Assembly (NCBI RefSeq): GCF_003231495.1
Contig: NZ_PQWO01000029.1
Coordinates: 1 to 32,000, forward strand
Reading direction: 5' to 3'
Length of the DNA stretch: 32,000 nt
Source of the DNA: Acaryochloris thomasi RCC1774
GTDB lineage: Bacteria > Cyanobacteriota > Cyanobacteriia > Thermosynechococcales > Thermosynechococcaceae
Positions within the stretch are counted from its first letter, which is position 1; the number at the start of each line of letters is the position of its first letter. Position numbers and translations under genes: made by a program. Positions 19,868 through 24,800 of the stretch are shown here, piece by piece. The notes beneath the pieces are model-generated. The model was not told the DNA's origin, searched no databases, and saw nothing but the letters and a program-made list of their open reading frames with translations.

Positions 19868-20836
19868 TCACTCGGGCTTAGTTGCGATCGCAACCCCTCT
19901 CACCGGCCCCGGATAGCCCTCAATCGTCTTCGTCACATCATTGGGATCTAAAAAATCCGCCAGCGATTGCTTCATCATCCAATCTGTTGCCCGCTGCTCT
20001 TGAACCGTCGTCGGCGTCACATCCACAATCCGAACGTCTTGAAACCCGCATTGAGCCAGCCAAAGCCTGAGGGTACCGCAAGAAGGAATCGCCCACACAT
20101 TCCGCATTTGAGCATAGCGATCTTCGGGCACCAGTACTTGCTCTTGCTCTCCCGCCAGCACCAAAGTCTCCAGCACTAACTCTCCCCCCGGCCTCAGTGC
20201 ATCACCCAGCACCGCCAGATGCTCCAGTGGTTCGCGGCGGTGATACAGCACACCCATCGAAAACACCGTATCAAAAGCACACAAACAACCCGGCAGATGT
20301 TCAATCCCCAGCGGCAACACGTAGACTTCTGGTTGCGGTAGATAGCGTCGCATCGCCGCATACTGCATTTCAAATAAGCGCGATGGATCTAAACCAATCA
20401 CCAGTGCAGCCCCGGCCCCCGCCATCCGCCAAGCATAGTAACCATTTCCGCAGCCCACATCTAAAATCACCCGCCCCTCCAGGGGTTGAATCTGGTCCTT
20501 AATACGCTCCCACTTCCAGTCAGAACGCCACTCCGTATCGAGATGGAGACCAAATAGCTCAAACGGTCCTTTGCGCCAGGGCTTGAGCTGCTTCAGAGCT
20601 GTTACAAGTTGCTCTTGCAGTTCCCCATCAATATCCTTTGACCGACCGATCCTGACACCGTTGACCAAATCGACCTCACTGGGCAGCGCATCTGGAAGAC
20701 TGGCAACGGCCTGCTGCCATTGCTCCATATGACCGTGCTTTTTCGGTGCTGTTTGGAGCTGTGTTGGCAGCGTCTCTAGCCAGGGGCGCACAGAGGTTCG
20801 AGAGAGACGGTCATACAATCGATCGAGTTCAAGCAT
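19868..20836 (-). CDS. cmoB: tRNA U34 carboxymethyltransferase CmoB (ho5U34 -> cmo5U34)
   Basis: ORF 19868..20851. Long collinear matches to recalled E. coli CmoB include WLETLP, PWRKGPF, DTEWRSDWKW, ILDVGCG.GY, FDTVFSMGVLYHRR.PLEHL, GELVLETLV, VLVP.DRYAQMRNV, SLADFLDP and EGYP. ATG 20836 (MLELDRLY...) gives the same N-terminal spacing as E. coli, but ATG 20851 is possible. Confidence 0.9.
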   Translation of the reverse strand: MLELDRLYDRLSRTSVRPWLETLPTQLQTAPKKHGHMEQWQQAVASLPDALPSEVDLVNGVRIGRSKDIDGELQEQLVTALKQLKPWRKGPFELFGLHLDTEWRSDWKWERIKDQIQPLEGRVILDVGCGNGYYAWRMAGAGAALVIGLDPSRLFEMQYAAMRRYLPQPEVYVLPLGIEHLPGCLCAFDTVFSMGVLYHRREPLEHLAVLGDALRPGGELVLETLVLAGEQEQVLVPEDRYAQMRNVWAIPSCGTLRLWLAQCGFQDVRIVDVTPTTVQEQRATDWMMKQSLADFLDPNDVTKTIEGYPGPVRGVAIATKPE

Positions 20837-20884
20837 AAACGGGAGTTCCAAGCCTCCCTAGACTATGCCATGCTCTAGAAAGAG

Positions 20885-21610
20885 TTGAGGAAAAGAACCT
20901 TGGCAAAAGTGGGTGATGCCATCCAGGCTGCAAATGCGAACTGGTCTTTCGGGGGGCAAACCCGCGAACAGTTTGAACAGCATATTCATAAATCTGTTCC
21001 CTTTTATGCCGAAGGACATCAGCTTGTGGAGGCGCTCTCTGATTTCTTTCTAGTGGAAGGTTCAGTTTGCTATGACTTAGGCTGCTCCACCGGTTCACTT
21101 ATGGTCTCGCTCGCGGAACGTCATGCCAACAGGCAGATTCAGTTTATCGGCATTGACTGCGAAGCCGATATGGCTCAGCAGGCGCAGGCCCAAGGTCAAA
21201 CCTTTGCCAATATTGAGATCCGTCACCAGAACTTGATTGATGTAGAGCTGGAGCCAGCCGACCTGATTGTGGCCTATTACACGATGCAATTCGTCAATCC
21301 CAAGCATCGCCAAGCCATCTTCAATCAGATTTACGAAGCCCTTAACTGGGGCGGCGGTTTAATTTTGTTTGAGAAAGTGCGCGCCCCCGATGCTCGCTTC
21401 CAGGACATGACGACGACGCTCTACACCGACTTTAAGTTGCAGCAGGGTTATTCCGGCGATGAGATTGTAGCCAAGACCCGCAGTCTAAAAGGAGTCTTGG
21501 AACCTTTTTCCACTGCAGGCAATCTAGGATTATTAGAACGAGCCGGTTTTGTCGATATTATGACAGTGATGAAGTACGTTTGTTTCGAGGGTTTCCTAGC
21601 CATCAAGTGA
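20885..21610 (+). CDS. cmoA: carboxy-S-adenosyl-L-methionine synthase CmoA
   Basis: 241-aa ORF, collinear with recalled E. coli CmoA. NWSFGGQ...FEQHIHKSVPFY matches DWTFDE...FPDMIQRSVPGY, and VCYDLGCSTG is SAM motif I. MQFVNPKHRQAIFNQIYEALNWGG is also matched, and the C-terminus is ...CFEGFLAIK. No in-frame ATG follows the upstream stop at 20876, so the start is non-canonical (TTG 20885, TTG 20900 or GTG 20909). Confidence 0.88.
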   Translation: MRKRTLAKVGDAIQAANANWSFGGQTREQFEQHIHKSVPFYAEGHQLVEALSDFFLVEGSVCYDLGCSTGSLMVSLAERHANRQIQFIGIDCEADMAQQAQAQGQTFANIEIRHQNLIDVELEPADLIVAYYTMQFVNPKHRQAIFNQIYEALNWGGGLILFEKVRAPDARFQDMTTTLYTDFKLQQGYSGDEIVAKTRSLKGVLEPFSTAGNLGLLERAGFVDIMTVMKYVCFEGFLAIK

Positions 21611-21697
21611 TCTAGAGGTGGTGCGAAACAGTTGGAGATAAATAAATGACCTATGCCCTAACCATACGCTTAAAAACTCAGTTCTAAGCTATGTATT

Positions 21698-21732
21698 CTC
21701 CCCCCTTTTTCAAGGGAGGCTGAGGGGGATCT
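21698..21732. repeat. short GC-rich palindromic mini-repeat (cyanobacterial CCCCC...GGGGGATC type)
   Basis: The sequence CTCCCCCCCTTTTTCAAGGGAGGCTGAGGGGGATC lies in the intergenic region after cmoA. C-run and G-run arms can pair. It resembles the dispersed repeats that yield spurious '...KGG.GGI/DL' peptides in cyanobacterial annotations. Confidence 0.45.
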
Positions 21733-21883
21733 GACTCGTGGCCGTATGCAACAGGCTTGCTAAAATTACGGGTTGTAGAGCGATAGCTGAGGGAAGAGCA
21801 TACTTTAAAGTGTGGCAGATGTACCACCATTTTGGCCCGTGCCTAGTTATCACGACTAATTACTATTTGAAGAGTTATCAACG

Positions 21884-22489
21884 ATGCAAAGATATCTAAA
21901 ATTTTCTCTACTGACTTTATTCATTGCGCTATCCGCATGTACAAATGGGAATCTCACGGAGAACAGCAGCATTGAAACGGCTGCTGAACCAGAGAATATT
22001 GACTCAGCGTTCACTCAAGGTGCCGAGCCAGAAGATGTTGAACCGACGGTAGAAGGCGTCGGACGGATCGAATCGGAATCAGAGCCAACACCAGTGGCAG
22101 CCGCCCCCAGCGAGGTGCTTCAGACCCAGCCAGGGCCAAGGGGTATGGAGGTAGACTTACGTCGTGCTGTCGTTACTGGTGATATCCTGACCGTTGAAAT
22201 CACCTATCGCAACCCGACTGATAGGGTCCAATCTACGGTCTACAAACCTGATAAAGTCAGCATCATTGATGATGCCACCTCGAAACGGTATGACGTGCTT
22301 CAAGACGACACAGAGCGCTACATGGCATCGCCATTAGCTGCGACAGACAGCATTAGCCTCACGGCGGCGTCCAAGGGGGGAGCAGCTACTGGGTGGTTCA
22401 AGTTCCCGGCTCCGCCCCCTTCTTCAGAGACAATCTCGGTCAATATCCCCGAGGTAGGAGCTTTCCTAGGTGTTCCGGTGCAGCGATGA
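21884..22489 (+). CDS. hypothetical lipoprotein with acidic linker and C-terminal beta-rich domain
   Basis: 201-aa ORF. The signal plus lipobox is LLTLFIALSAC-TNG. An E/P-rich linker is followed by a ~110-aa domain (DLRRAVVTGDILTVEITYRNPTD...GWFKFPAPP). No family recognised with confidence. Confidence 0.7.
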   Translation: MQRYLKFSLLTLFIALSACTNGNLTENSSIETAAEPENIDSAFTQGAEPEDVEPTVEGVGRIESESEPTPVAAAPSEVLQTQPGPRGMEVDLRRAVVTGDILTVEITYRNPTDRVQSTVYKPDKVSIIDDATSKRYDVLQDDTERYMASPLAATDSISLTAASKGGAATGWFKFPAPPPSSETISVNIPEVGAFLGVPVQR

Positions 22490-23136
22490 GCAAACATTTG
22501 ACCACAATACTCTTGCTGCTTATATCTGCGCTGGTGGGCTGCAGTGAGCCGATTGCCGAGTTGCCCCCCGAACCACCTGCGGGGAAAGAAGCCTCTTCGC
22601 CTGTTTTGCCTTCTCCTGACAGTGAGCTTCCTACTCCCTCTGAACAGAGTCAAGACCGTCTTGATTCCAGTACTCGTAGCGAGAATAATGATGCCGGTAG
22701 ACCTCTCACCGCGCGAGTAAGCGATCTCAATGCGCTTGTCGATGAGCTGGGTGGGCGTGTGACGGCGCAAGAGATTACGGTTCCACTCCCCGCTGACGTT
22801 CTGTTTGATTTTGATAAGGCCGAGCTGCGTTCTGATGCCCTGCCCACGCTCCAGCGTCTTGCAGATCTAATCAGAGAAAGTGGTGATGGAGCAATTCAGA
22901 TCGAAGGACATACAGACTCTAAAGGTGAAGAAGCCTACAATCAGCCTCTCTCTGAGCGGCGCGCCCAAGCCGTTGCTGATTGGCTCACCAGTCAGGGTAT
23001 AGGCTCAGATCGCCTACGCTCAAGTGGCTTGGGTGAATCAAAGCCAGTCGCAGAAAATACAAATGCAGACGGCAGCGATAATCCTGAAGGACGTCAGCAA
23101 AATCGACGGGTAGAGGTCATTATTCAGCGAGAATGA
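22486..23136 (+). CDS. OmpA-family (OmpA_C-like, peptidoglycan-binding) lipoprotein
   Basis: ORF 22393..23136. I choose ATG 22486, which overlaps the upstream stop (ATGA) and gives MSKHLTTILLLLISALVGC-SEP (lipobox). The OmpA_C-like core is VLFDFDKAELRSDALPTL...IEGHTDSKGEEAYNQPLSERRAQAVADWL...NRRVEVII. Confidence 0.85.
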   Translation: MSKHLTTILLLLISALVGCSEPIAELPPEPPAGKEASSPVLPSPDSELPTPSEQSQDRLDSSTRSENNDAGRPLTARVSDLNALVDELGGRVTAQEITVPLPADVLFDFDKAELRSDALPTLQRLADLIRESGDGAIQIEGHTDSKGEEAYNQPLSERRAQAVADWLTSQGIGSDRLRSSGLGESKPVAENTNADGSDNPEGRQQNRRVEVIIQRE

Positions 23137-23241
23137 TGACGAAAAGGGGTGCTGCTAGCTTTGTCCTGAGAGAGGAGCAGCGTTACCGGCTTGATGTTCC
23201 AAGCCTGTTATTTTAGACGTTTTGCAGATAGGAACTCGACA

Positions 23242-23311
23242 AGTCGGTTTTGTCGATATTATGACGGTGATGAAGTACGTCTGTTTTGAAGGGTTCCTCG
23301 CTATCACGTAG
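23242..23311 (+). pseudogene. orphan copy of the last 22 codons plus stop of cmoA
   Basis: 59 of 70 nt are identical to 21541-21610. It translates in frame as VGFVDIMTVMKYVCFEGFLAIT*, against AGFVDIMTVMKYVCFEGFLAIK* at the end of cmoA. An in-frame stop lies upstream at 23192-23194 and no N-terminal part is present. Confidence 0.85.
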
Positions 23312-23324
23312 CCCCAGTCACACC

Positions 23325-24281
23325 ATGCCAGATCATTCACTCGTTATAGAGCCACCTTGCGATCGCCCTATCGTAGTGGCAACCATGTATAAATTTATAT
23401 ACATAGAAGACTGCCTGCCCCTCAAAGAGCAGCTCATCGAAATTTTTCAGGCCCACAACCTCATGGGCACCATTCTCTTAGCCACAGAAGGCTTAAATGG
23501 CACCGTTGCCGGTCCAGCATCGGGAATAGAGGCTCTATTTCAGTTTTTGCATCAAGATTCACGATTTGTTGACCTATGGCCGAAGCTTTCCTACGTACCA
23601 AGCCCCCCCTTTAAACGCATGAAAGTTAAGGTGAGGCGCGAGATTGTCTCCATGGGCTTAGAGGGCATCGATCCAGCAGAGAAAACCGGCACCCATATTG
23701 ATCCTAAAAACTGGAATGAGCTGATCCGAGACCCCGAAGTGCTGGTAATTGATACTCGCAATCAGTATGAGTATGAGATTGGTACCTTTGAAGGGGCTAA
23801 GTCGCCTGAGACCGAGAATTTTCGACAATTCCCGCAGTTTGTTGATGAGCAGCTTAATCCCAAAGAGCACCCAAAAGTCGCAATGTTTTGTACCGGTGGA
23901 ATTCGTTGTGAGAAGGCTAGCGCCTATCTATTGGAACAGGGATTCGAAGAGGTCTATCAGCTAGAGGGCGGCATTCTCAATTACCTACAGGCGCACCAGC
24001 CTGAAAATTCTCTATGGAATGGCGAATGCTTTGTCTTCGACGAGCGCGTTGCCGTCGATGAACAGCTTCAACCCGGTAGCCATACCATGTGTTTTGGCTG
24101 TCGCCACCCGCTATCCGAGCAAGACTATCAATCAGAGAAATACGAGCCAGGCATCTCCTGCCCCCATTGCTTCGATCAGCTAACTGAAAGCCAGCGTGCT
24201 AGCTTTGCAGAGCGCAGATTACAGATGGAGCTTGCGGCCCAACGCAGCCAAAAACATCTGGGAACATCGGAAGAAACGTAA
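23325..24281 (+). CDS. trhO: rhodanese-domain tRNA uridine(34) hydroxylase TrhO (YceA/UPF0176 family)
   Basis: ORF 23286..24281. I prefer ATG 23325 (MPDHSLV...). It is collinear with recalled E. coli YceA. Matches include YKFIYIED (YKYFHIAD), EGLNGTVAGP (EGINAQISVP), RMKVKVRREIV, VIDTRNQYEYEIGTFEGA, the active-site loop MFCTGGIRCEKASAYL, LEGGILNY and CFVFDERVAV. Confidence 0.88.
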   Translation: MPDHSLVIEPPCDRPIVVATMYKFIYIEDCLPLKEQLIEIFQAHNLMGTILLATEGLNGTVAGPASGIEALFQFLHQDSRFVDLWPKLSYVPSPPFKRMKVKVRREIVSMGLEGIDPAEKTGTHIDPKNWNELIRDPEVLVIDTRNQYEYEIGTFEGAKSPETENFRQFPQFVDEQLNPKEHPKVAMFCTGGIRCEKASAYLLEQGFEEVYQLEGGILNYLQAHQPENSLWNGECFVFDERVAVDEQLQPGSHTMCFGCRHPLSEQDYQSEKYEPGISCPHCFDQLTESQRASFAERRLQMELAAQRSQKHLGTSEET

Positions 24282-24296: not shown

Positions 24297-24800
24297 TTAC
24301 GGTTTACGCACCGTAATAGGATTTGTAAACAGCGTTGAATTCGGTATTAGGATGCGATCTCCTTCAGTTTCCAGGGTTGTGTAGCGCAGATCAATTTCAA
24401 TCACCGTTCCCTCTAAACCCGACACCGTAATCCAGTCCCCACGGATAAACGGACGGTAGGTCAAGACAAGTACACCAGAGAGCAAATTTGACAGAACGTC
24501 CTTGAGGGCAAAGCCTAGAGCAAAGCCCGTCAGACCTAGGCTAGCAACCATCGCTGAGACATCAACCCCCATCGTGCCCATTGAGACGGTTATACCCACT
24601 AGAATGATGCCCACAGAGACCACTCGGCGCAGAAGGTTAACAATATCCCGATCTAGATGGCTACGCCGACCGACCTGATCAACAATCCTTCCGGCAACGA
24701 GACTGAGAAACCAGAAGACAAGCAGGCTCAGTAAACCTGAAATGAGCTGAGGGGTAAATAGCAAGAGTTTCTCAGTCAATGCTTTAATGCCGTCGTTCAT
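24297..24800 (-). CDS. small MscS-family mechanosensitive channel-like protein (lacks C-terminal alpha-beta domain)
   Basis: 167-aa ORF. It has three TM helices, including a pore-helix-like LGLTGFALGFALKDVLSNLLSGVLVL, then the beta-domain YRPFIRGDWITVSGLEGTVIEIDLRYTTLETEGDRILIPNSTLF. The protein ends right after that. Confidence 0.75.
   Translation of the reverse strand: MNDGIKALTEKLLLFTPQLISGLLSLLVFWFLSLVAGRIVDQVGRRSHLDRDIVNLLRRVVSVGIILVGITVSMGTMGVDVSAMVASLGLTGFALGFALKDVLSNLLSGVLVLTYRPFIRGDWITVSGLEGTVIEIDLRYTTLETEGDRILIPNSTLFTNPITVRKP

Follow-up and report, generated by a model that had tools for sequence, protein, structure and literature searches.

A duplicated cmoA 3′ end flanks a 1.63-kb insertion between cmoA and trhO in Acaryochloris thomasi RCC1774

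Islands and prophages that integrate at the 3′ end of a gene carry a replacement for this end and leave attL/attR direct repeats behind. DNA is also inserted without a dedicated recombinase, namely by homology-facilitated illegitimate recombination or by template switching of the FoSTeS/MMBIR type, where an upstream re-entry results in a flanking duplication. The fate of duplicated sequences with two roles is described by duplication–degeneration–complementation, in which either copy retains a single role while decaying with respect to the second. Finally, promoters internal to an operon are known that lie within its upstream gene.

The gene cluster cmoB/cmoA–trhO serves the synthesis of cmo5U34, and yceA/trhO was described as close to cmoA in cyanobacteria (Sakai et al. 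2019, PMC6599085). The same three genes are present in the DNA stretch analysed here—32,000 nucleotides of A. thomasi RCC1774, referred to as the window. In contrast to the known cluster, unrelated envelope genes separate cmoA from trhO by 1.63 kb, a copy of the cmoA end that does not code lies ahead of trhO, and the cmoA product scores below the NCBIfam cutoff for CmoA (TIGR00740, 151.6 bits versus 193.3). Its gene (20885–21610, forward strand), cmoA-like and of the carboxy-SAM synthase family, is intact and ends in TGA; the best matches of the product among solved structures are CmoA entries (4gek, 4iwn and 1im8, with E-values from 6e-29 for 4gek to 3e-25), and the clustering with cmoB and trhO is conserved in relatives. 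The true start of cmoA is probably located downstream of the TTG at 20885; in L002 and L003, two of the related loci, the longest cmoA reading frame is broken by an in-frame stop at codon 3. The tRNA U34 carboxymethyltransferase gene cmoB (19868–20851, reverse strand) is divergent from cmoA, as it is in the relatives, and its product reaches 459.3 bits for TIGR00452 (cutoff 275) with the Pfam domain Methyltransf_9. The oxygen-dependent tRNA U34 hydroxylase gene trhO (23325–24281, forward strand) encodes a UPF0176_N and a Rhodanese domain (NF001133, 316.5 bits, cutoff 170), and the protein N-terminus from the ATG at 23325 is conserved in the loci L081, L083 and L001. An upstream TTG start overlapping the repeated block was considered from the sequence and rejected, as L083 bears an in-frame stop there.

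The last 23 codons of cmoA together with the TGA (21539–21610, forward strand; copy A) recur in codon register at 23240–23311 on the same strand (copy B, or the relic), with 60 of 72 positions identical, no indels and an offset of 1701. An independent repeat search returned nearly the same segments (21538–21608 and 23239–23309, 86%), whereas no other 72-mer on the two strands of the window matches at more than 34/72, and 50 shuffled windows gave best matches of 34.9 on average and 38/72 at most. The longest run of identity between both copies is 21 nt in the window and 10 nt in L081. The original prediction had listed 11 differences within a 70-nt range—seven silent third-position changes, the replacements A>V and K>T, and TGA against TAG—and all of these are found; the third replacement, R>Q (CGA/CAA at 21540/23241), is found one nucleotide beyond the start of this range. 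An upstream extension of weak similarity to about 23220 had also been suggested. Gapped local alignments upstream of both blocks are, however, no better than shuffles, and at most 5–6 further nucleotides (CTCGA) may belong to the relic. Whereas copy A is the live end of the gene, copy B is non-coding as cmoA and reads QVGFVDIMTVMKYVCFEGFLAIT*. It retains a TATTAT hexamer (23257–23262), an in-frame ATG (23261–23263) and the stop TAG, which ends at 23311. The 13-nt spacer between this stop and the ATG of trhO (23312–23324, forward strand) is homologous to the native cmoA–trhO spacer; it reads CCCCAGTCACACC in the window, CCCCCGTTGTGCC in L081 and CCTCAGTCATGTC in L001.

The cassette between both copies starts with a non-coding part of 273 nt (21611–21883), which shares no more than 59% of its positions with L081 and differs from it by many indels; a TACTAT at 21861–21866 is seen in both sequences. 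Its small open reading frames have no Pfam match. What had been described as a mini-repeat is a single hairpin-like string of 35 nt (21697–21731) without a second copy in the window, and pairwise alignment shows no counterpart in L081. Two lipoprotein genes follow on the forward strand. The first (21884–22489, 201 aa, lipobox LSAC) yields no Pfam or NCBIfam match at E ≤ 1e-3; its product equals A. thomasi C1752_09730 at 100% identity and has 66% identity to L081, with further homologues scattered over taxa including Hymenobacter, Larkinella and Neisseria. The second (22486–23136, 216 aa, lipobox LVGC), whose start overlaps the stop of the first in an ATGA, encodes a peptidoglycan-binding lipoprotein with an OmpA domain (PF00691, E = 1.7e-21), 77–79% identical to L081. 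The lipoprotein–OmpA gene pair is also present in L082 and L090. The right non-coding part (23137–23239, 60% identical to L081) holds a block conserved with L081, TAGACGTT..GCAG, and a terminator-like hairpin at 23188–23205 followed by a T-rich run, a type of site no commoner here than in shuffles. Within the insert, no recombinase or transposase was found: only the OmpA-domain frame has a family match, the others having none in Pfam at E ≤ 1. The window and L081 share no terminal inverted repeats, plasmid and phage collections gave no match, and the GC content of the cassette shows no anomaly against its flanks.

The original prediction had proposed an ancestral cmoA–trhO operon that was split by an insertion. 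About 20 related loci bear this out with contiguous cmoA and trhO and a divergent cmoB, so that the reading as a split operon has strong support. Among lineages without the cassette, in the five closest (L083, L001/L086, L003, L093 and L094)—the closest of all being L083 with a TrhO 86% identical—the cmoA stop lies 12–13 nt before the trhO ATG, and this native spacing equals that between relic and trhO. Only one further cassette-bearing sequence was found, L081, a 2.3-kb contig from another sample and organism (Logan SRR14610195), which is also the only sequence above 60% identity in the protein searches. It was assembled independently, belongs to a second lineage that is deeply diverged, and carries the same cassette and the same relic, sharing with the window the derived CAx and GTC codons of the relic, its edges and its TAG stop. 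Hence, the event is old and not a misassembly. Cassette and relic in all related genomes had been named as an outcome that would speak against the original prediction; this is partly the case, with L081 in possession of both. A pattern scan of metagenomes for more cassette-bearing relatives returned three distant cmoA genes only, and among 94 fetched loci none has the cassette next to cmoA without a relic. The GAG, CTA, GCC and TGA states of copy A were fixed before the lineages of the window and L081 split. Taken together, an ancestor of A. thomasi RCC1774 and L081 received the 1.63-kb segment at the cmoA end of a cmoB<>cmoA–trhO cluster. The insertion was accompanied by a duplication of the 3′ end of cmoA over ~72 nt, or perhaps as much as ~78 nt, which left cmoA with a complete C-terminus and stop and trhO with its native 85 nt upstream.

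A direct repeat of a gene 3′ end flanking cargo, with the gene itself intact and an orphan end beyond, is reminiscent of islands integrated at gene ends. Unlike in these, there is no integrase here, an identical run between the repeats of 21 nt in the window but only 10 nt in L081, a cargo of only 1.6 kb and a live cmoA end without any sign of being element-borne. Transposons and insertion sequences leave target duplications of merely 2–14 bp, whereas ~72 nt are duplicated here without a transposase or terminal inverted repeats. A 72-nt flanking duplication is not known as the signature of any standard bacterial insertion mechanism. Template switching or illegitimate recombination, which likewise inserts DNA next to a resident gene without a recombinase and leaves a flanking duplication, is the candidate mechanism—with the difference that junction microhomology is confined to a possible CTCGA at the right junction and that no donor was found. 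The event is of an ordinary kind, but with an evolutionary twist in what became of the two copies.

For these, we lean, slightly above an even chance, toward a duplication of the resident copy, the block being later partitioned between coding and a putative cis role for trhO. Both copies would derive from the resident gene by duplication in place—for example by a template switch or illegitimate recombination that re-entered the chromosome ~72 nt upstream of its exit—and a foreign cmoA would be unnecessary. In the intact operon, the 72 nt would encode the invariant CmoA tail and, overlapping with it, a nucleotide-level cis element for trhO expression. Copy A would then have remained a coding sequence with drift confined to its silent sites; copy B would have stopped coding, with replacements accumulating at its edges, while purifying selection continued to act on its core ahead of trhO. 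Such an element would most likely be a putative promoter or leader for trhO, as suggested by the TATTAT in both relics and the terminator-like hairpin just upstream in the window.

The polarity of the changes is consistent with this. All relatives end in ...RAGFVDIMTVMKYVCFEGFLAIK*, and hence the relic holds the derived state at each of the three replacements. What has changed in the live copy A alone is silent or stop-to-stop throughout, and so are its 4–5 differences at sites invariant in intact operons. The original prediction had taken the silent bias as a sign that both copies diverged in functional cmoA genes of two lineages. This does not follow, since a duplication in place with one coding copy predicts the same: seven silent changes out of ten are improbable if all decay is neutral (p = 0.0035) and not if one copy stays coding (p = 0.055), which makes the pattern weak evidence. 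The inference of foreign DNA is not needed, and the three proteins CmoB, CmoA and TrhO agree with one another in how similar they are to L083 and to L001.

Constraint on the block is already visible in single-copy operons. Among conserved residues, identical codons are used at 16/27 positions in the last 30 cmoA codons versus 33/144 elsewhere (p = 3e-4), or at 14/22 versus 38/154 when repeated with an alignment (p = 7e-4); three other clades do not show this effect, a comparison from which "Halothece trio 1" was left out for a frame problem. In the five intact operons, 59 of the 72 sites of the block are invariant. The relic of the window has changed at 3 of 63 sites invariant in intact operons, where ~19 (~30%) would be expected under neutrality (p = 6e-7), and the relic of L081 at 12 of 63 (p = 0.036). 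Both relics are identical at 57/72 positions without indels, while four-fold degenerate sites are identical between window and L081 at 128/246 (relic slower, p = 4e-5) and flanking intergenic DNA at ~60% with many indels. The TATTAT hexamer is lost in copy A of L081 (GATGTCATG) and kept in both relics. The frozen state of the relic core is due to a constraint on the nucleotides of the block, which acts in uninterrupted operons too.

What this constraint stands for is a question of lower confidence. Judged from conservation patterns, the last ~70 nt of cmoA might be of dual use, serving as CmoA C-terminus and as a cis element (promoter, leader or micro-ORF) that trhO requires for its expression, which we deem quite possible at somewhat less than an even chance; the constraint could also have another cause. 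A sigma-70 consensus scan gave no promoter inside the relic at the threshold of the tool, RNAalifold found 0 compensatory pairs in five junction sequences, and Rfam gave no match at E ≤ 1. Single-sequence folds are weaker than those of shuffles (z = +1.9 for the window and +2.3 for L083). An NtcA/CRP-like palindrome in the block, GTC-N8-GAC, was discarded on reading the sequences, as both half-sites are mutated in the L081 relic. Furthermore, the L081 relic bears 11–12 changes against 3 in the window, and with this stronger decay any function would not be equally needed in both lineages.

Alternatively, one of the copies might be foreign: the cassette would have arrived joined to the cmoA 3′ end of another lineage by homology-facilitated illegitimate recombination, a Campbell-type single crossover of a circular fragment or a decayed integrative element with a replacement for the gene end, making the live end donor-derived and the relic the displaced native end. 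We regard this as unlikely, albeit as an explanation with real weight. The right edge of the repeat coincides with the stop codon, as if donor–recipient homology had ended there, and GAG, CTA, GCC and TGA are present in both cassette-bearing lineages and therefore older than their split. CTA and GCC are, however, also native states of L083, and by its sequence the TGA may consist of a native T followed by GA from the insert. At silent sites the relic is closer to L001 than copy A is (66 versus 61/72), but both copies are equally similar to L083 (64/72 each), so neither of them is "the foreign one". Recombination with DNA of relatives is detectable elsewhere in the gene: in a mosaic test, ~21237–21520 is L002/L003-like and the 5′ part L083-like, and the window cmoA thus demonstrably contains a recombination tract from a relative. 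Yet this tract is absent from L081 and not traceable into the block, and its type mismatches the private states of copy A; it does not account for the block differences. As to the cassette, a homologous lipoprotein–OmpA pair adjoins an IS481-type transposase in L090, whereas the insert here lacks integrase, transposase and terminal repeats, stays within the GC range of its flanks, and lies beside a relic-less cmoA in 0/94 fetched loci. The two L081 copies share at most a 10-nt identical run, which gives little sign of a conserved att-like core, and the silent-site bias is explained without a donor. It thus appears that selection has maintained the 72-nt copy before trhO, and not that a foreign genome supplied it.

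If the relic is selected, it might be so as a translated micro-ORF of 16 codons, from the ATG at 23261 to the TAG at 23309–23311, whose terminating ribosomes would stop 13 nt upstream of the Shine–Dalgarno-less trhO start and thereby replace the coupling to cmoA. Both relics, which lack indels, retain the ATG and the TAG with an open frame between them and the spacing of 13 nt, the spacers by eye bear no Shine–Dalgarno-like motif, and the unstable folding given above would fit as well. Moreover, the L081 relic has 5 replacement and 0 silent changes upstream of the ATG against ~4 and 6 downstream—but these counts are tiny and chosen post hoc (Fisher p ~0.04). Coupling would select for frame and stop and not for the exact nucleotides seen conserved, no ribosome-binding signal precedes the ATG at 23261, and the conserved core reaches upstream of it (TCGATATT), which renders this version improbable.

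Very improbable is that the relic is functionless debris, its similarity prolonged either because copy A occasionally converts it or because few mutations arise locally. Both copies do agree within each genome at the third base of codon 1 (A,A versus C,C) and at codon 19 (TTC,TTC versus TTT,TTT), GGA is present in both L081 copies, and the L081 relic has decayed considerably. However, the copy-specific states flanking those sites have not merged in either genome, which would limit conversion tracts to less than 9 nt; the window relic matches the consensus of intact operons rather than its own copy A, and the block is constrained at silent sites in single-copy operons too. An assembly artefact, that is, a collapsed or chimeric join, has practically no chance, as no support for it was found, the copies differ at 12/72 positions and the independent assembly of L081 shows the same architecture.

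The locus hence provides a dated two-lineage example of an operon split by foreign genes with neither flanking function lost, and a ~70-nt segment inside cmoA whose silent sites evolve far too slowly for coding alone. For annotation, it also shows that a bias toward silent differences between the end of a gene and an orphan copy of it is, on its own, no evidence of horizontal origin. Should the preferred reading—a resident duplication with later partitioning—be true, a single insertion–duplication would have separated both uses of the block, with each copy since degenerated for the use it lost. In comparison to duplication–degeneration–complementation as described, the unit would be 72 nt with overlapping coding and cis roles and not a whole gene; in comparison to known embedded internal promoters, the cis role is deduced from conservation only. 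If the segment controls trhO, the expression signal of the cyanobacterial tRNA wobble-hydroxylase would be identified, and "orphan gene fragments" beside insertions could be selected regulatory DNA instead of debris. This would be subfunctionalisation at a 72-nt scale of overlapping coding and regulatory sequence, preserved in two deeply diverged lineages.

In the window, cmoB (19868–20851) is divergent from cmoA (20885–21610, plus strand), which is followed on the same strand by 273 nt of noncoding DNA, the overlapping genes of a 201-amino acid lipoprotein (21884–22489) and a 216-amino acid OmpA-domain lipoprotein (22486–23136), another 103 nt of noncoding DNA, a 72-nt copy of the cmoA end (23240–23311; the relic), a 13-nt spacer, and trhO (23325–24281). 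The relic and the live cmoA end (21539–21610; copy A) are identical at 60/72 positions, in the same register and with zero indels; the best other 72-nt match in the window reaches 34/72, and shuffles reach 38/72 at most. The differences between the copies were listed exactly in the original prediction across its 70-nt range, and an extra R>Q replacement lies just beyond it. As to the other end of cmoA, the longest ORF begins with TTG at 20885. Because codon 3 of the equivalent ORF is a stop in two Thermosynechococcaceae MAGs, L002 and L003, the true start is probably TTG 20900 or GTG 20909—which would leave a very short divergent cmoB–cmoA control region.

A CmoA-based scan with one genome per species returned 80 loci, about 20 of which—from cyanobacteria and gammaproteobacterial MAGs—show contiguous cmoA–trhO with a divergent cmoB. 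Protein-based look-ups provided closer relatives: L083/L084/L085 (TrhO 86% identical; L083 from SRR32619217), L086 (identical to L001 over the compared cmoA-end and junction region), L093, and L094. All of these are uninterrupted, with 12 to 13 nt from the cmoA stop to the trhO ATG, and the window's relic-to-trhO spacer is homologous to this native spacer. The predicted splitting of an ancestral cmoA–trhO operon by the insert is thereby confirmed. The proximity of the two genes in cyanobacteria was already recorded in the TrhO discovery paper (PMC6599085), and the locus adds a case to an already known kind of event, insertion with partial duplication of a gene at its flank.

More widely, the divergent cmoB/cmoA–trhO cluster is also found in gammaproteobacterial MAGs (L013–L034; CmoA 60–64% identical to cyanobacterial CmoA), and Omnitrophota and Planctomycetes carry similar CmoA without cmoB/trhO neighbors; the entire cluster looks horizontally mobile across phyla. 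It has been hit by other rearrangements at different points: L003 (2750–6522) has about 2.1 kb between cmoB and cmoA, compared with 30 to 70 nt in most relatives, and in L006 (4864–7693) cmoB lies 1.1 kb from cmoA on the same strand.

That relatives might carry the same cassette and relic, which the original prediction had counted against itself, is partly the case, through a single second lineage. This lineage, L081, is a 2.3-kb contig from an independent assembly of a different sample (Logan SRR14610195) with the same layout as the window, and its relic likewise closes with TAG, leaving 13 nt to the trhO ATG. Amino acid identity to the window is 88% for the cmoA 3′ half, 66% for the lipoprotein, 79% for the OmpA-like protein, and 94% for trhO, and 128/246 four-fold degenerate sites are identical (52%; Jukes–Cantor distance ~0.77). 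Hence, the event is old, and misassembly is ruled out. Both relics bear the derived states CAx and GTC in their first two codons and have the same edges, so they go back to a single ancestral event.

The two cassette proteins match A. thomasi C1752_09730 (the lipoprotein) and its OmpA-family protein at 100% identity. Their homologues are scattered over Hymenobacter, Larkinella, Acidobacteriota, Neisseria, and some cyanobacteria. In L082, the same overlapping pair (54% and 69% identity) adjoins the gene of a protein bearing a Por secretion tail, and in L090 (2311–5642) a homologous pair has an IS481-type transposase and hicAB toxin–antitoxin genes ~1 kb away; L090 and L082 come from the same metagenome. 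The pair is a portable two-gene unit, with hints that it travels with mobile DNA. Within the insert, there is no recombinase, transposase, or terminal repeat, its GC content shows no anomaly, and plasmid and phage collections gave no match, so that its origin and insertion mechanism can be inferred only. A template switch or illegitimate insertion with re-entry ~72 nt upstream would give the observed structure in one step. The left noncoding part also bears a 35-nt hairpin-like string of a C-run and a G-run (TCTCCCCCCTTTTTCAAGGGAGGCTGAGGGGGATC; 21697–21731), single copy in the window, which is a lineage-specific small insertion because it is absent from L081.

The silent-biased differences between the copies had been taken to mean that one copy is foreign. 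The data do not support this as stated. All relatives, near and far, end in RAGFVDIMTVMKYVCFEGFLAIK followed by the stop, and the three replacements R>Q, A>V, and K>T are for this reason derived on the relic. Where the sequence does not vary among three to five intact operons (63 and 59 of the 72 sites), copy A has changed at 4 to 5 sites in the window, all silent or stop-to-stop, and at 5 to 6 in L081, where I>V and V>I replacements accompany silent or stop-to-stop changes; the relic has changed at 3 sites in the window, all second codon positions, and at 11 to 12 in L081, of mixed kind. Each window copy is 64/72 identical to L083, the nearest empty-site relative. Given the silent bias (7/10 changed codons), all-neutral decay is rejected (p = 0.0035), and a model with one copy still coding is not (p = 0.055). 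Furthermore, identities are concordant across the locus, with CmoB, CmoA, and TrhO at 80, 86, and 86% to L083 and 81, 81, and 83% to L001. Taken together, the difference pattern does not require a donor. A donor origin of one copy is still conceivable: GAG, CTA, GCC, and TGA were already fixed before the window and L081 lineages split, and the right edge of the repeat falls exactly at the stop codon. The apparently A-type CTA and GCC are native states of L083, and the TGA/TAG difference may be a junction effect, the native T being joined to GA of the insert.

The more general part of the prediction, recombination with related DNA, fares better. Where L083 and L003 differ, the 5′ part of the window's cmoA matches L083, and ~21237–21520 matches L003 and L002 (39/58 versus 24/81 informative sites); the best-segment p is 1e-5, reached by 0/500 permutations. 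This mosaic indicates that homologous exchange with relatives does occur in the window's cmoA. The tract is lineage-specific, L081 being L083-like there (residues F30, I46, A47, and A22; clean four-taxon sites 12 to 6), and it is untraceable into the repeated block; the tract type ACG, TTT, GGG differs from the private states ACA, TTC, GGT of copy A. As a separate observation, the copies (window, 21539–21610 and 23240–23311; L081, 269–340 and 1976–2047) agree within each genome at three silent sites where the genomes differ—the third base of codon 1, codon 19 (TTC/TTT), and codon 18 (GGA in L081)—a pattern that very short patches of gene conversion, or else parallel G:C>A:T changes, could explain.

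In uninterrupted operons of the clade, the last ~25 cmoA codons hardly vary in nucleotide sequence. At residues conserved in L083/L001/L003, all three codons are identical at 16/27 in the last 30 codons versus 33/144 elsewhere (p = 3e-4), or 14/22 versus 38/154 with a proper alignment (p = 7e-4). No such excess appeared in trios from Halothece, a Synechococcus-like group, and gammaproteobacteria. The constrained stretch is about the same segment as that kept in the relic. Between the window and L081, the relic is 57/72 identical without indels; the figure for four-fold sites is 52% (p = 4e-5), and that for each intergenic part of the insert is ~60%, with many indels. At the 63 invariant sites, 3 changes are seen in the window relic, where divergence since the split alone would predict ~19 (p = 6e-7), and 12 in the L081 relic (p = 0.036). 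By these comparisons, the relic evolves much slower than neutral DNA; it appears to be under purifying selection and probably serves trhO.

As to how, a consensus scan found no sigma-70 promoter in the relic; it did find a terminator-like hairpin with a T-run just upstream (23188–23205). If this hairpin is real, the window's trhO would need its own promoter; L081, with its more decayed relic, does not conserve it. The region shows no covariation, matches no Rfam family, and has folds weaker than those of shuffles (z = +1.9 in the window and +2.3 in L083), and this weak folding fits a ribosome-landing or leader region. A minority possibility is a micro-ORF for translational coupling, as both relics retain an ATG in frame, followed by an open frame that ends in TAG 13 nt short of the Shine–Dalgarno-less trhO start, and the L081 relic has, by our own count, ~4 replacement and 6 silent changes downstream of the ATG versus 5 and 0 upstream. 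The 13-nt spacer is variable, and codon identity is raised in the first 30 to 45 trhO codons in every pair of the clade (~70–80% versus ~50% further in; 23325–23460).

The HIP1 octamer GCGATCGC at 23361–23368 is common to the window, L081, L083, and L001. The public A. thomasi TrhO (P0053) has 298 amino acids, which would place its start at 23385, the ATG of MYKF. This annotated start is probably too far downstream, since L081, L083, and L001 all conserve the 20 additional N-terminal codons from ATG 23325 and the match to UPF0176_N sets in at residue 17. Beyond trhO, with its stop 15 nt from the trhO stop, lies an MscS-like ORF (24297–24800, minus strand; 167 amino acids) that covers profile positions 25 to 172 of 286 and misses the C-terminal domain; L083 and L084 instead have histidine kinases there, and the ORF may be a truncated gene at a rearrangement boundary.

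Returning to the probable trhO role of the relic, copy A sequences have started to change at sites invariant in intact operons, and the TATTAT hexamer is kept in both relics and lost from L081 copy A. Together with the constraint in intact operons and the slow relic, this drift suggests that the ancestral cmoA end had two roles—coding for CmoA and acting in cis for trhO—which the duplication would have divided between copy A and the relic. Purifying selection on an orphan fragment that probably serves trhO would be the more interesting, and testable, addition to the finding of a split operon.
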